DNA of 64,000 nt from Acholeplasmataceae bacterium (GCA_963675245.1 OY775910.1:832001-896000), one strand, 5' to 3'. Positions 11,919-16,430 are shown, numbered from the stretch's first letter. Numbers and translations: made by a program. The notes: generated by a model from the sequence alone, not told the origin.

Positions 11919-13502
11919 ATGTATGAATTTAAATTTGCGGATATCGGTGAAGGTATCCATGAAGGTAATATCTTAGAATGGAAATTCAAAGAAGGCGACG
12001 CTGTCAATGAAGGCGATACATTAGTGATCGTTGAAACAGATAAGGTCAATGCAGAAATTCCATCACCAGTCAACGGTAAGGTCCACCAAATCAATTTTAA
12101 GGTTGGAGAAACGGTTCATGTTGGTGAAGTGCTTGTCGTATTAGATGACGGTACTGCTGAACCAGCACCAAAGAAAGAACCACAAAAAGAAGTATCTAAA
12201 AAAGAAGAACCTAAAAAAGAATCTAAAGCACCAGAAGTCACGGGTGGATTTGAGTTTAAGTTTGCTGACATTGGTGAAGGGATTCATGAGGGTAATATTT
12301 TAGAGTGGAAATATAAGGAAGGTGACGATGTTAAAGAAGGCGAAACATTAGTCATCGTTGAAACAGATAAAGTCAATGCTGAACTTCCATCACCAGTTGA
12401 GGGTAAGATTTCTAAAATTAATTTTAAAGCTGGTGAAACCGTTCATGTCGGTGAAGTATTAGTCGTTATCGGTGGTAATGCTAAACCACAAGAAGAGAAA
12501 GCACCATTAAGCGAAGGCGATGATGAAAAAGCAGCAGGCGTTATTGGTGAAATCGAAGTTTCCCATGATGTGATGGCTTCGAGCACAGAACATGAAGAAG
12601 AAAAACCTACAAAAAAATCAATGGGTAAGGTGTTAGCTACACCAGTCGCTAGAAAATTAGCAAAAGATTTAGGTGTTGACATTCAAACCGTTAAAGGTAC
12701 GGGTGAGAATGGTCGCGTCATGAAAGATGACATCAAAAAAGCAGCTAATAAACCTCAAGGGGCAACACATGTCAGTTCACCTAAAGTGAGTGTATCAACA
12801 CAAGGTGATGTTGAACTTGTGAAGATCACAAACCTTAGAAAAGCTATTGTTAAAGCTATGACGTTATCTAAACAAGTCATTCCTCATACGGTTTTACTTG
12901 ATGAAGTCAACGTCGATAAATTAGTTGATTTAAGAAAACAAGTGAAAGCACAAGCGGCTGCACAAGACATCAAGTTAACATATATGGCATTCATTATGAA
13001 GGCTGTTGTTTTAGCTCTTCAAAAATTCCCTTGGTTTAACGCAAGCTTTGACCAAGAAAACGAACAAATGGTATTAAAGAAATTCTATAACATTGGTATG
13101 GCGGTTGATACACCTGATGGTTTAATCGTTCCTAATATTAAAGATGCCAATCAAAAGAGCATCTTAGAATTAGCGAAAGACATTCAAACTGTTGGTGATT
13201 TAACTAAATCAAGAAAGATTCAACTCTCTGCGTTACAGAATTCAACCTTTAGTATAACGAACTTTGGTGCTGCAGGTATCGCTGCAGGTACTCCAATCAT
13301 TAATCATCCAGAAGTTGGTATTCTAGGTGTTGGTAAGATTGAGCAAAAAGCTGTTGTTATTGATGGCGAAATTAAAGCTGCTTACACCCTACCATTATCA
13401 TTAGCAGTCGATCACCGTGTGATTGATGGCGCTGATGCTGGAAGATTCTTAAACTATCTCAAGACGTTGCTTAGTGATCCGCTCTTGTTATTGTTAAATT
13501 GA
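11919..13502 (+). CDS. pdhC: Dihydrolipoamide acetyltransferase E2 with two lipoyl domains
   Basis: Two ETDKV lipoyl domains; E3-binding ATPVARKLA; catalytic DHRVIDG. Confidence 0.95.
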   Translation: MYEFKFADIGEGIHEGNILEWKFKEGDAVNEGDTLVIVETDKVNAEIPSPVNGKVHQINFKVGETVHVGEVLVVLDDGTAEPAPKKEPQKEVSKKEEPKKESKAPEVTGGFEFKFADIGEGIHEGNILEWKYKEGDDVKEGETLVIVETDKVNAELPSPVEGKISKINFKAGETVHVGEVLVVIGGNAKPQEEKAPLSEGDDEKAAGVIGEIEVSHDVMASSTEHEEEKPTKKSMGKVLATPVARKLAKDLGVDIQTVKGTGENGRVMKDDIKKAANKPQGATHVSSPKVSVSTQGDVELVKITNLRKAIVKAMTLSKQVIPHTVLLDEVNVDKLVDLRKQVKAQAAAQDIKLTYMAFIMKAVVLALQKFPWFNASFDQENEQMVLKKFYNIGMAVDTPDGLIVPNIKDANQKSILELAKDIQTVGDLTKSRKIQLSALQNSTFSITNFGAAGIAAGTPIINHPEVGILGVGKIEQKAVVIDGEIKAAYTLPLSLAVDHRVIDGADAGRFLNYLKTLLSDPLLLLLN

Positions 13503-13633
13503 GGTGACTAACTATTAAAAGTCAAGTACTTTTAGTAGATAAACTGTAAAAACCTCCAATAGCCATAATTTTTAGAGGTTAGCCATATAACTGGATGATT
13601 TTATGACTTAACCGCCACAGTTTAAGTAATCAA

Positions 13634-14794
13634 TTATTGTAGTTTAGAGGAATCAAAATCTTCCTGATGTGTTTCGAGATGATGAATGACTCTAATGAGT
13701 TTTTTTGAAAGATGAACCAGTGCGACACGATGATGTTTACCCTCTTGTTTCTTCTTGGTGTAGTAGTCGTAGAAGACGGGGTTATAGATCATAACCATCA
13801 TTGAGATATTGATGAGTGTTGCTCTTAGGTACTTGCTGCCACGTTTAACCAGTTTACCTGTTGAAGACATGGTGCCAGACTGTCTGATGGTTGAATCCAG
13901 ACCTGCATAGGATAACATTTCAGCGGGATTGGAGAAAAGTGAAATATCACCATATTCTGAAACGATGACAGCTGCTGAAATGATTCCGATACCTTTAATG
14001 GTTTGAATCTTAGTTGGATATCGATGCATTAAAGAAATGATCTGTTTCTCAGTTTCTTCGATATCTTGATTGAGTTTCTCAACATAAGAAATTGAAGTCT
14101 TAAGTTTGAATAGTTGATGATCTTGTGTCACACCAATGGTTGATTTTGCGAGTTCCTTCAGTTTAACAAACTTCGGATAATTGAATTTACCCATCGATCG
14201 TTTACGAAGCTTATCGAAGTGGTCATCAGTCATCCTTGCTATTTTATCCGGTGATGAAAAGCGCTTCAAGATGTATAAAGATGTATCACTATAGCCTTGT
14301 TCTTGCATAAAAGGTTTGAATTCAGGAAAGATGACATCTAAGACCTTGGTCATCATATTGTAGTGTTTCGTCCGAATTGAGATGAGTTTAAAACGTAACC
14401 TGGTCAGTGATTTTAAAGCACTTATATGATAAGATTGATGATGATAGGCTTTGTAGTCTACAGATCTCATATAAGTTGAAATCATTTGTGCATCTTTCTT
14501 ATCCGTCTTTGTTTTTCTCAGTGAATGGGCTTCTCCAAACTTCTTCACGAGAAAAGGATTAATCTCCATGAATGAATATCCATGGAGGATAAGAAATGAC
14601 TTAAGGTTTTCTCCATAATGACCTGTGGCCTCTAAGCCTATTATCATTTCTTGCTTGACTAAAGAGTTAAAGTATCCTAATAGTTCTTTAAACCCAGACT
14701 GACTGTTCTCAAATGAGAACTGATGGCTAACTGTTTCGGTGGCGATGAAACAGTCATGCTTGTACTTTGAAATATCGATGCCGATATAGATCAT
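13634..14794 (-). CDS. IS110-family DEDD recombinase/transposase
   Basis: GIDISK, GLEATG, KTDKKDA RuvC-like residues; C-terminal YAGLD..RQSG and KRGSKYLR. Confidence 0.95.
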   Translation of the reverse strand: MIYIGIDISKYKHDCFIATETVSHQFSFENSQSGFKELLGYFNSLVKQEMIIGLEATGHYGENLKSFLILHGYSFMEINPFLVKKFGEAHSLRKTKTDKKDAQMISTYMRSVDYKAYHHQSYHISALKSLTRLRFKLISIRTKHYNMMTKVLDVIFPEFKPFMQEQGYSDTSLYILKRFSSPDKIARMTDDHFDKLRKRSMGKFNYPKFVKLKELAKSTIGVTQDHQLFKLKTSISYVEKLNQDIEETEKQIISLMHRYPTKIQTIKGIGIISAAVIVSEYGDISLFSNPAEMLSYAGLDSTIRQSGTMSSTGKLVKRGSKYLRATLINISMMVMIYNPVFYDYYTKKKQEGKHHRVALVHLSKKLIRVIHHLETHQEDFDSSKLQ

Positions 14795-14834
14795 AAGTAC
14801 ACCTCCAAGAATTAAATTTGTACGTGTGGTAAGT

Positions 14835-15050
14835 CCAGCAGCGTCTTTATCTCATAATCATGTAAAAAGCGTCTTCCGCTAACTAACTATTGCTGATTAA
14901 AATAAAGACCGTGGTAAGCGTCACCTCAAAATAGTCTAGGTTATAAAAATATGACACAGATCCACAGTACATTATTAGTATATTAAATTAGAACGAAAGG
15001 AGTAAAGATTTAAAGACTTAAGTAACTAACTTAATACACTTTAAATCTTA
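14835..15050 (-). ncRNA. Predicted IS110 bridge RNA
   Basis: 5' hairpin (15006-15048), then four segments matching target-left, target-right, donor-left and donor-right in canonical order and orientation; boundaries approximate. Confidence 0.8.
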
Positions 15051-15059
15051 CATGATTAT

Positions 15060-16430
15060 ATGGCAACTTATGATGTATTAATATTAGGTGGCGGTCCAGG
15101 TGGTTATGTCGCCGCGATTAAAGCTGCTCAAAATGGATTAAAAACAGCACTGATTGAAAAAGAAGTAGTTGGAGGTATATGTTTAAATCACGGATGTATC
15201 CCAACAAAAGCATTATTGAAAAGTGCTAAAGTATATAAACAATTTAAACACGCGTCTGATTATGGTATCACGCTAAAAGGTGAGGTTGATTATGATTGGA
15301 CGAGTATGCTTAAAAGAAAAGATAAAGTCGTTAAGCAACTAACAGGCGGTGTTGCGGGATTACTTAAGAAGAATGGTGTTGATGTTTTTAACGGTTTTGG
15401 TGAAGTAGTATCTTCAACGAAAGTTAAGGTTAATGATCAAACACTTGAAACAAAAAATCTCATATTAGCAACAGGTGCCTCACCTGTCATTCCACCCATC
15501 CCTGGATTAAAAGAAGCATATGTAAAAGGGGTTGTTGTAACATCAAGAGAATTACTCCAAATTAAAGAAGCACCAACATCACTTGTCATTATTGGCGGTG
15601 GTGTCATTGGCGTAGAATTCGCAACCATCTTTAATGCACTTGGTTCTAAAATTACAATTATTGAAATGCAACCTGGCATTCTTCCACCAATGGATGATGC
15701 GATACGCACGCAATATACAAAACTTCTTAAAAAAGAAGGCATTGAGATTTTAACAAGTGCTGAAGTGAAAAAGGTTGATGATGGTACAGTTTATTATGAA
15801 CTCGATGGTAAACAACATCAAATCACAGGTGATACGGTCTTAGTCGCGGTTGGTATGCGTGCTAATTCTAAAGGTCTTGAGACGTTAAATCTTAAGATGA
15901 ACCGTGCAGCTGTAGACACAAACGATAAGCTTGAAACAAGTGTACCTCATGTGTACGCAATAGGTGATTTGAATGGGAAGTATATGCTCGCACATGTGGC
16001 ATCTCATGAAGGTGTGATCGCGATTGAAAATATTCTTGGACACGATAAGTCTATGAATTATGATCGCGTGCCTAACGCTGTTTATGGCTCACCAGAAATC
16101 GCGATGATTGGTAAAACCGAACGTGAACTAAAAGAACAAAATATTCCTTATAAAGCATCAACGTTCCCACTTATTGGTAATGGTAAATCTTTAGCAGACG
16201 GACAAAGCGAAGGGTTTATTAAATTATTAGTCAGTGAAAAGTATAAAGAAATATTAGGTGCACACATCTTGGCGTATAACGCATCTGATTTGATTGCTGA
16301 ATTAGGTGTTACGATGGAACTTGAAGGTACTGCTTATGAAATAGCGAATACCATTCACCCACACCCAACGCTATCAGAAATTGTGATGGAAGCGGCAGAA
16401 GGCGCAATCGGTAAACCTATTCATATTTAA
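15060..16430 (+). CDS. lpdA: Dihydrolipoamide dehydrogenase E3
   Basis: GGGPGGY, GGICLNHGCIPTK, GGGVIG, HPHPTLSE. Confidence 0.96.
   Translation: MATYDVLILGGGPGGYVAAIKAAQNGLKTALIEKEVVGGICLNHGCIPTKALLKSAKVYKQFKHASDYGITLKGEVDYDWTSMLKRKDKVVKQLTGGVAGLLKKNGVDVFNGFGEVVSSTKVKVNDQTLETKNLILATGASPVIPPIPGLKEAYVKGVVVTSRELLQIKEAPTSLVIIGGGVIGVEFATIFNALGSKITIIEMQPGILPPMDDAIRTQYTKLLKKEGIEILTSAEVKKVDDGTVYYELDGKQHQITGDTVLVAVGMRANSKGLETLNLKMNRAAVDTNDKLETSVPHVYAIGDLNGKYMLAHVASHEGVIAIENILGHDKSMNYDRVPNAVYGSPEIAMIGKTERELKEQNIPYKASTFPLIGNGKSLADGQSEGFIKLLVSEKYKEILGAHILAYNASDLIAELGVTMELEGTAYEIANTIHPHPTLSEIVMEAAEGAIGKPIHI

Follow-up and report, generated by a model that had tools for sequence, protein, structure and literature searches.

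Bridge RNAs were described in 2024 for IS621, whose recombinase combines a DEDD RuvC-like domain with a Tnp domain carrying a catalytic serine (Durrant 2024, PMC11208160; Hiraizumi 2024, PMC11208158). In the accessible portions of these reports, on which the comparisons with IS621 made below also draw, the RNA lies in the left end of the element upstream of the recombinase gene and presents a target loop followed by a donor loop. The left guides have the sequence of the top strand, the right guides are complementary to the top strand, a sigma-70 promoter is split between the ends, its -35 lying at the right and its -10 at the left, and terminal inverted repeats are lacking. In the IS621 core the first base varies and the second is invariant, and in the handshake guides the two bases that follow the core complement pair with the left arm of the donor following strand exchange (Hiraizumi 2024, PMC11208158). 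Some orthologues have right target guides (RTGs) longer than that of IS621 (Durrant 2024, PMC11208160). In the accessible text of a 2026 preprint, IS621 is argued to transpose by a single-strand, copy-and-paste route.

IS1111-type elements likewise pair a DEDD recombinase with a target-selecting RNA, the seekRNA, and possess subterminal inverted repeats according to the accessible part of the report by Siddiquee (2024, PMC11187229). IS900 and IS901 of Mycobacterium avium, which belong to the IS110 family, insert in fixed orientation between the Shine-Dalgarno sequence and the start codon (accessible text of Plague 2010, PMC2942039, citing Doran 1997 and Inglis 2003), and the available portion of a further report (PMC8141618) describes in IS900 a long antisense open reading frame, hed, that borrows host signals. 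No paper was found that links the Shine-Dalgarno targeting of IS900/IS901-type elements to bridge RNAs. A 2026 preprint (10.64898/2026.10.21.760802), as far as its accessible text goes, predicted 32,190 bridge RNAs, including longer-guide variants, by covariance-model mining of IS110-adjacent RNAs, an approach resembling the one used here.

The window, a stretch of 64,000 nucleotides from an Acholeplasmataceae bacterium (GCA_963675245.1, OY775910.1:832001-896000), contains on its minus strand an IS110-family insertion sequence that was recently active. The region between the left end of the element and its recombinase gene is very probably a bridge RNA gene, with the RNA residing in the 5' leader of the recombinase. 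The element is an ordinary member of the class described in 2024. It shares with IS621 the two-domain recombinase, the location of the RNA and the order of its loops, the strand relations of the guides, an apparent split promoter and the lack of terminal inverted repeats. It differs from IS621 in having a distant protein (about 150 residues align well, E 1.7e-15), junction bases TCA rather than CT, a right target arm of 6-7 nt rather than the native 4 bp, left guides that end in UU opposite T-C and need a wobble, an internal -10 that is conserved and immediately precedes the target loop without an adjacent 5' stem-loop, and a target that is a translation start region instead of a repeat element. 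Unlike IS1111, it has its guide RNA 5' of the gene and has no inverted repeats joining its ends. It resembles IS900 and IS901 in family, target class and fixed orientation, but no hed-like antisense frame was found in it, the longest antisense open reading frame being 51 aa.

The element and its recombinase

The insertion sequence occupies 13506-15055 (minus strand) with the TCA shared by its junctions included, and the element proper runs from about 13508 to 15053, or about 1.55 kb. Four copies, 100% identical over the span, are present in the one-contig 1.63-Mb genome (34% G+C). In element orientation the constant sequence of all four copies starts with CATGTAAG (longer read CATGTAAGATTT) and ends with ..AATAGTTAG (longer read ..TTGACTTTTAATAGTTAG), after which TCACCTC follows in 4/4. 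The left flanks are ..GCCATATAAT, ..TTCATACAGT, ..TTCATATAGT and ..TCCATAATAA, and each copy is bounded by CAT-N4-5 at the left and TCACCTC at the right. A repeat search returned 12 inverted-repeat pairs, none of which joins the two ends of the element. Position 13627, just past the recombinase stop codon, is T in the window and G in the collapsed IS contig of runs X1 and X2, so that at least one copy or subpopulation differs there. The public runs holding the stretch (X1, X2 and X4) are DNA assemblies kept as contigs, in which neither a circle junction nor an empty site appears, and an RNA run (X19) overlaps it over 35 nt of the E3 gene only.

The recombinase gene (13634-14794, minus strand, 386 aa) is flanked by the E2 gene (11919-13502) and the E3 gene (15060-16430) of an operon of the pyruvate dehydrogenase type. 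The protein matches the Pfam families DEDD_Tnp_IS110 (PF01548, 3.2e-36) and Transposase_20 (PF02371, 4.7e-22), so that both the DEDD RuvC-like domain and the Tnp domain that follows it in IS621-type systems are present, and it scores 230 bits against a cut-off of 140 with the NCBIfam equivalog NF033542, 'IS110 family RNA-guided transposase'. Among solved structures in the PDB the best match, compared by sequence alone, is to the ISCro4/IS622 bridge recombinases (9t56, E 1e-16), with the catalytic motifs aligned; the match to IS621 has E 1.7e-15. Residues D7, E55, D98, D101 and S306 are identical in ISCro4, which gives the protein the DEDD residues plus the catalytic serine position, and they would be equivalent to D11, E60, D102, D105 and S241 of IS621. 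Downstream of the stop codon a hairpin followed by a T run (13547-13580, minus strand, read from the sequence) resembles a terminator and is kept in relatives as aacctc...ggaggttttt; an automated scan did not call it, its loop of about 17 nt being above the limit of the scan. The start region of the recombinase gene (plus strand, 14792-14806) reads CAT-AAGT-AC-ACCTCC and resembles the target motif of the element itself, which suggests that copies might insert into each other. No nested copy occurs in this genome.

Structure and expression of the leader RNA

The target-binding loop (14909-14967, minus strand) is closed by an outer stem, CUGUGG/CCACGG (14967-14962 / 14914-14909), and contains an inner stem (14944-14941 / 14934-14931), which leaves two single-stranded sides of 16-17 nt each. 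The donor-binding loop (14844-14908, minus strand) has an outer stem (14908-14902 / 14850-14844) and an inner hairpin, AGCG/CGCU (14880-14877 / 14871-14868). An earlier note on this DNA had described the same donor-loop pairings, as GTCTTTAT (14843) with ATAAAGAC (14902) and AGCG with CGCT (14868/14877), and these are present, as are all ten of the sequence strings that it quoted.

This four-helix structure was set by hand and then tested by counting pairs in a close alignment of 13 sequences (A1, the window copy and 12 relatives) and in 77 distinct relatives. Relatives came from a scan of one genome per species, which found 80 loci with recombinases at 47-91% identity, most of them in Acholeplasmataceae, Izemoplasmatales and uncultured Bacilli. 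The 13 close left ends have 90% column identity, with variation confined mainly to two short blocks, and the structure is 96% paired in them. Among the 77 distinct relatives, the two target-loop helices are 98.7% and 92.3% paired with both-side changes in 9/10 pairs, and the two donor-loop helices are 91.4% and 99.7% paired with both-side changes in 9/11. In all, compensatory changes occur in 18 of the 21 pairs and 95.2% of cells are paired, a figure that leans toward the structure because the alignment was fitted to the model. The observed pairing was reached by none of 500 shuffles, and slid controls were 34-66% paired.

A covariance model (R1) built from the hand-set structure matched 81 of 84 loci at E <= 2.3e-7, on the sense strand and directly upstream of the recombinase gene. 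The three remaining matches are weak (E 0.002-0.025), one being truncated and two lying at 0.006 and 0.025. Seventeen of the 84 loci match by construction or as duplicates of sequences in the model (the 12 fetched for A1, the genomic copies L001-L004, and L017, whose score equals that of L008). In the genome of the window R1 finds the four copies only. A scan of 13000-15600 with Rfam 15 at E <= 10 gave no matching family, only three chance matches to snoRNA/miRNA models. Two computed folds were set aside. The single-sequence minimum-energy fold of 14795-15059 (z = -3.0) pairs the left end with the right donor guide (RDG) and is uninformative because these are complementary by design, and RNAalifold on the close alignment pairs the left donor guide (LDG) with the RDG and misses the outer stem of the donor loop; the hand-set structure replaced it.

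The sequence GCUGGACUUACCAC (14826-14843, minus strand), between the donor loop and the ribosome-binding site of the recombinase, is near-invariant in close relatives. It repeats CUUACCAC, the 3' strand of the target-loop outer stem, and could form an alternative pairing with CUGUGG. No covariation was found at GCUGGACUUACCAC for the CUGUGG pairing or for a crossing pairing of CAGC with GCUG. The pseudoknot-like contact of CAGCA with TGCTG (14836/14891) that had been suggested thus fares in two ways: the strings exist and are kept in 12 of the 13 A1 sequences, but their crossing pairing shows no both-side change and, judged by eye, is not kept in distant relatives. One relative with 80% recombinase identity (L020, 893-1165) has lost the target loop and carries a tRNA-gene-like sequence (..GTAGCTCAGTTGGATTAGAGCGC..) instead; of its donor loop the 3' half alone remains.

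Expression of the RNA can be considered from two sets of promoter-like motifs. In the left end a hexamer lies 3 nt past the shared C and is TATAAT in 55/71 and TAAGAT in 16/71 left ends; in the window copy it is TAAGAT (15045-15050, minus strand). In the right end TTGACT (13520-13525, minus strand) is found 12 nt before the shared bases in 68/72 cases. A circle joining the two ends would therefore carry a promoter with a spacing of 17 nt (12 + 2 + 3), and at the level of sequence a sigma-70 promoter split over the junction between right and left ends is conserved across the clade. A candidate internal promoter, TTTACT-18 nt-TATACT (14977-15006, minus strand, 9 of 12 in a consensus scan), has its -10 at 14982-14977 and ends about 9 nt before the target-loop stem. 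Most of the 28 relatives listed show, on inspection by eye, a hexamer resembling TATAAT some 8-10 nt before GCACTGTGG, the exceptions being L018, without the hexamer, and L084, without upstream sequence. These motifs would be consistent with a functional internal promoter, and the conserved -10 suggests that integrated copies may make an RNA starting right at the target loop. In the window copy only, TTGCCA in the flank precedes TAAAGT of the left end by 17 nt (15038-15066, minus strand); this promoter-like site (9 of 12) is due to chance and could drive transcription into the element.

The RNA had been proposed to begin with a 5' hairpin. Its arms are where they had been placed (15006-15015 / 15039-15048) and were also recovered by an independent repeat search; on the minus strand the hairpin (15006-15048) has an outer stem, AGATTTAAAG/CUUUAAAUCU, and an inner stem, UUAAGU/ACUUAA. 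Its 5' arm overlaps the -10 half of the junction promoter, it lies upstream of the clade-wide internal -10, and its pairing, although kept in 12 aligned sequences (the window copy and 11 relatives), shows no compensatory change. The hairpin is thus probably not part of the mature RNA, contrary to the proposal.

Guides and junctions

The sides of the loops were anchored on the stems and the junctions on conserved end motifs. In this frame the IS110 element of the earlier note holds up, with an IS621-type bridge RNA at its left end, the target loop before the donor loop and four guides that can be located. The RTG, UUGAGGUGAC (14920-14929, minus strand), is the exact complement of the right junction GTCACCTCAA and, as had been pointed out, the exact reverse complement of 13499-13508; an independent repeat search agrees. 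It consists of an arm, the core complement and then 1-2 bases that match the right end of the element itself. The LDG, AAUAGUUAGUU (14881-14891, minus strand), has the same sequence as the right end AATAGTTAGT(C) at 13516-13506, a span that includes the identity of 14882-14891 with 13507-13516 reported before. The RDG, (UU)UUACAUGAUU (14856-14867, minus strand), complements the left end (T)CATGTAA(GA). The exact reverse complementarity of 14854-14865 to 15048-15059 claimed for this guide is also there and was recovered by the repeat search, the extra matches at 14854-14855 being to flank present in the window copy only. The left target guide (LTG), UGUGU-CAUAUUU-UU (14945-14958, minus strand), forms the 5' side of the target loop, and its CAU matches the complement of the start codon of the target gene. 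The match noted earlier, ATATGACA at 14949-14956 with ATATGGCA at 15058-15065, is present with one purine difference.

The right guides had been credited with matches of 10-12 nt, longer than those described. Exact matches of that length exist, but the arm accounts for only 6-7 nt and the rest is core, handshake-like bases and copy-specific flank. The 10-nt RTG match is made up of a 6-7-nt arm (..CCTCAA), the shared bases and 1-2 bases (G or GT) of the right end of the element; the 12-nt RDG match is made up of 6 nt of the left end, the shared bases and 4 flank bases of the window copy only. Longer natural RTGs have already been reported in the accessible parts of Durrant 2024 and of the 2026 preprint.

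The covariation of guides with their targets across homologs, which had been offered as a check, is found for all four guides. Each guide was re-paired with the flanks of other loci by permutation, the flanks being independent loci with duplicates removed and the relatedness of the elements being left uncorrected. Clade-wide, none of 5000 permutations reached the observed value for the RTG (50 pairs; 5.5 of 7 variable positions versus 3.1 when permuted), or the LTG (63 pairs; 5.65 of 12 versus 4.41). The outcome for the LDG (21 pairs) and the RDG (46 pairs) was likewise 0/5000. The reverse complement of the RTG equals the right junction in 82-100% of loci over the first eight positions, the mutual information between RTG and flank on the diagonal is 0.6-1.1 bits, and the covariation ends after about 7-8 positions. 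In the close group (13 pairs, 0/5000 permutations) the right flanks CACCTC, CACCCC, CACTCC, CAACTCC and CACCTT each stand beside a matching guide. The LDG covaries with the right-end variants TTTG, GCTAG and TTGG, and the RDG with the left-end variants ATG, ACG, TCG and TTG.

As a chance control, 4000 random 246-nt segments of the same genome were scored against the four half-sites cut at the junction. The real segment has exact runs of 5 (LTG), 9 (RTG), 10 (LDG) and 9 (RDG), which were reached by 3818, 33, 18 and 53 controls, respectively. The RTG, LDG and RDG runs are each unusual and, taken together, lie far outside what chance gives. The LTG match in the window copy (5 exact, 8 with wobble) is alone indistinguishable from chance; the LTG is supported clade-wide and is the weakest of the four guides in the window copy. 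The bridge RNA reading rests mainly on the RTG, LDG and RDG together with the structure.

Such a weak LTG leaves room for an alternative in which the bridge RNA is genuine but the choice of the left side of the target is not set by the LTG, insertion being driven mainly by the RTG, as reader of the Shine-Dalgarno complement, and by the donor loop, with little contribution from the CAU and its neighbouring bases, in a manner similar to the half-match insertion reported in the accessible IS621 text. It is unlikely, though it keeps more weight than the two alternatives that follow. The LTG can be read in the four left flanks as TGCCATAT.., TTTCATAC.., TTTCATAT.. and TTCCATAA.., and its UU adjoining the junction mismatches all four targets (AA, AG, AG and TA). 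The distance from CAT to the junction ranges from 3 to 7 nt across the clade, and the signal in the close group (14 pairs) is weak, 40/5000 permutations reaching it at a fixed register and 300/5000 when three registers are allowed. However, this alternative must contend with the clade-wide association of LTG and flank given above, with exact matches of 9-10 nt between LTG and flank in L058, L079, L083, L066 and L064, and with CATA, which is found at 4/4 occupied sites versus 7/19 unoccupied CAT-N4-TCACCTC sites.

The left end might instead be a promoter and leader only, with the internal copies of the ends acting as DNA binding sites (subterminal repeats) of the recombinase. The public runs over the stretch are DNA contigs, and the LDG and RDG are near-invariant in the close group, where by themselves they resemble repeats of the ends. 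Such an arrangement is very improbable, as it leaves unexplained both the change of the RTG and LTG together with host flanks outside the element and the compensatory base-pair changes in four helices, and no terminal or subterminal inverted repeats join the two ends. That the guide matches are chance similarity can be dismissed, for although short AT-rich matches are common in a genome of 34% G+C (mean control run about 5.9 nt), the summed run length of 33 was reached by 1/4000 controls and the architecture recurs, with covariation, in 81/84 relatives.

The preferred reading, a bridge RNA that selects both donor and target, would work as follows. The RNA, part of the minus-strand 5' leader of the recombinase gene, would fold into two internal loops. 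The left side of the donor loop repeats the right end (AATAGTTAG-T..) and its right side complements the left end (..CATGTAA), so that the donor loop is predicted to recognize the joined right-end/left-end junction of an excised circle, which would run ..AATAGTTAG, TCA, TGTAAG... The target loop offers CAU plus 4-5 variable bases on its left side and UUGAGGUGA on its right side, and from these two sides it would recognize a host gene's start codon, spacer and Shine-Dalgarno box as they read on the opposite strand, in the form CAT-N4-TCACCTCAA. The recombinase would then exchange strands within or beside the shared TCA, and the element would land antisense between the Shine-Dalgarno box and the ATG. 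By analogy with IS621, the RNA is presumably made, the promoter halves TTGACT (right end) and TAAGAT (left end) would fire only once joined in the circle, and the position of cleavage and any handshake pairing would follow the IS621 pattern. The handshake-like column after the core complement of the target loop matches the right end of the element in 50/50 pairs, consistent with a handshake of the IS621 type. No covariation of a donor-loop handshake with the target was found clade-wide (1587/5000 permutations); the flank bases matched by the RDG of the window copy could possibly be read as a handshake.

The register of the core can be narrowed from the junctions. The left junction (15053-15062, minus strand) consists of CAT (15062-15060), the spacer ATAA and the shared TCA (15055-15053); the right junction (13499-13507, minus strand) consists of the shared TCA (13507-13505) followed by CCTCAA, which is the complement of the E3 Shine-Dalgarno box and overlaps the E2 stop codon. 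TCA is common to both junctions, and the core is therefore TC or CA. A TA core, which had been proposed, is excluded because the bases between the candidate TA and the constant left end differ among the copies (..CATATAAT|CATG, ..CATACAGT|, ..CATATAGT| and ..CATAATAA|), so that identical copies would end differently. First guesses of GT/AT were dropped after comparison with distant groups. The base before the invariant C is the same at both junctions in 49/57 relatives (among the subgroups, TC/TC in 31 and CC/CC in 17) and different in 8/57. A TC core fits in that the left guides would stop exactly at the core, as those of IS621 do, and reach the invariant C solely through a U-G wobble at their end; its variable first and invariant second base would match the IS621 pattern. 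A CA core fits in that both right guides then carry two-base handshake matches, and it also explains the 8/57 discordant bases; the joint switching of the base on both sides between subgroups speaks against it. In the eight discordant insertions the right-side base is the one read by the RTG in 8/8 and the left-side base is that of the LTG in 4/8. If TC is the core, the 8/57 discordance (loci L001-L083) is the pattern expected when only top-strand information survives.

Target sites at translation starts

All four genomic copies are antisense to a host gene and separate its GAGGTGA-type Shine-Dalgarno box from its ATG. The genes hit are those for E3 lipoamide dehydrogenase (15060-16430, plus strand, at the left of the element in the window), a 109-aa protein without a Pfam family, a GDSL hydrolase and a class-I Glu/Gln-tRNA synthetase. 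Beside the ATG of the four split genes (L002-L004 and the window copy), the left end offers no visible Shine-Dalgarno box that could take the place of the lost one. Nineteen unoccupied CAT-N4-TCACCTC sites exist in the genome, and the fit of some of them equals that of the occupied sites.

Throughout the clade the insertions are antisense and separate a Shine-Dalgarno box from its start codon. In 45/57 distinct left flanks a CAT precedes the junction by 2-7 nt, mostly by 4 or 5 nt. The complement of a start codon occurs in 48 left flanks (45 CAT, 3 CAC/CAA), and 40 of these 48 open a reading frame, counted up to 60 codons on the opposite strand, versus 25 of 114 control frames. The complement of a Shine-Dalgarno box is found in 56/63 right flanks. 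This clade-wide aim at translation start regions is a modest natural-history point. A stronger proposal, for which the balance tips only slightly in favour, is that the target loop of this IS110 clade, found in Acholeplasma-like bacteria and other Bacilli, is locked onto the translation start module, with a Shine-Dalgarno-like RTG, a CAU-bearing LTG and variation restricted to about 4 bases of the spacer and 2-3 distal ones.

If the proposal is true, it would supply an RNA-guided explanation for the landing of IS900 and IS901 between the ribosome-binding site and the start codon, and the elements would be natural, orientation-fixed uncouplers of the two, affecting here genes that include those for a class-I Glu/Gln-tRNA synthetase and the pyruvate dehydrogenase E3. 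A bolder and speculative extension would have ribosomes or 16S rRNA competing for the RNA through its Shine-Dalgarno-like guide. The locus provides a well-anchored natural example of a bridge RNA, with four identical copies, about 80 relatives and covariation for each guide and each stem, and it links the mechanism described in 2024 to the target preferences of IS900 and IS901 described in the 1990s and 2000s. As a scaffold for engineering, the clade brings a right arm of 6-7 nt and a non-CT junction, an incremental gain since such variants are already being catalogued.

The E2-E3 site of the window has counterparts in other genomes. In the two closest genomes the E2-E3 spacer reads GAGGTG, then AATGAA or ATCACG, then ATG, and it is too diverged to tell anything of the target before insertion. 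The site TTGAGGTGA, in which the E2 stop codon overlaps the E3 Shine-Dalgarno box, is kept in several insertion-free relatives. A relative of the element with 84% recombinase identity (L015 and L104, which are the same place) sits at the same place between E2 and E3 in another genome, where the E3 DNA is only 66% identical to that of the window, and the site looks like a recurrent target rather than the seat of an inherited insertion.
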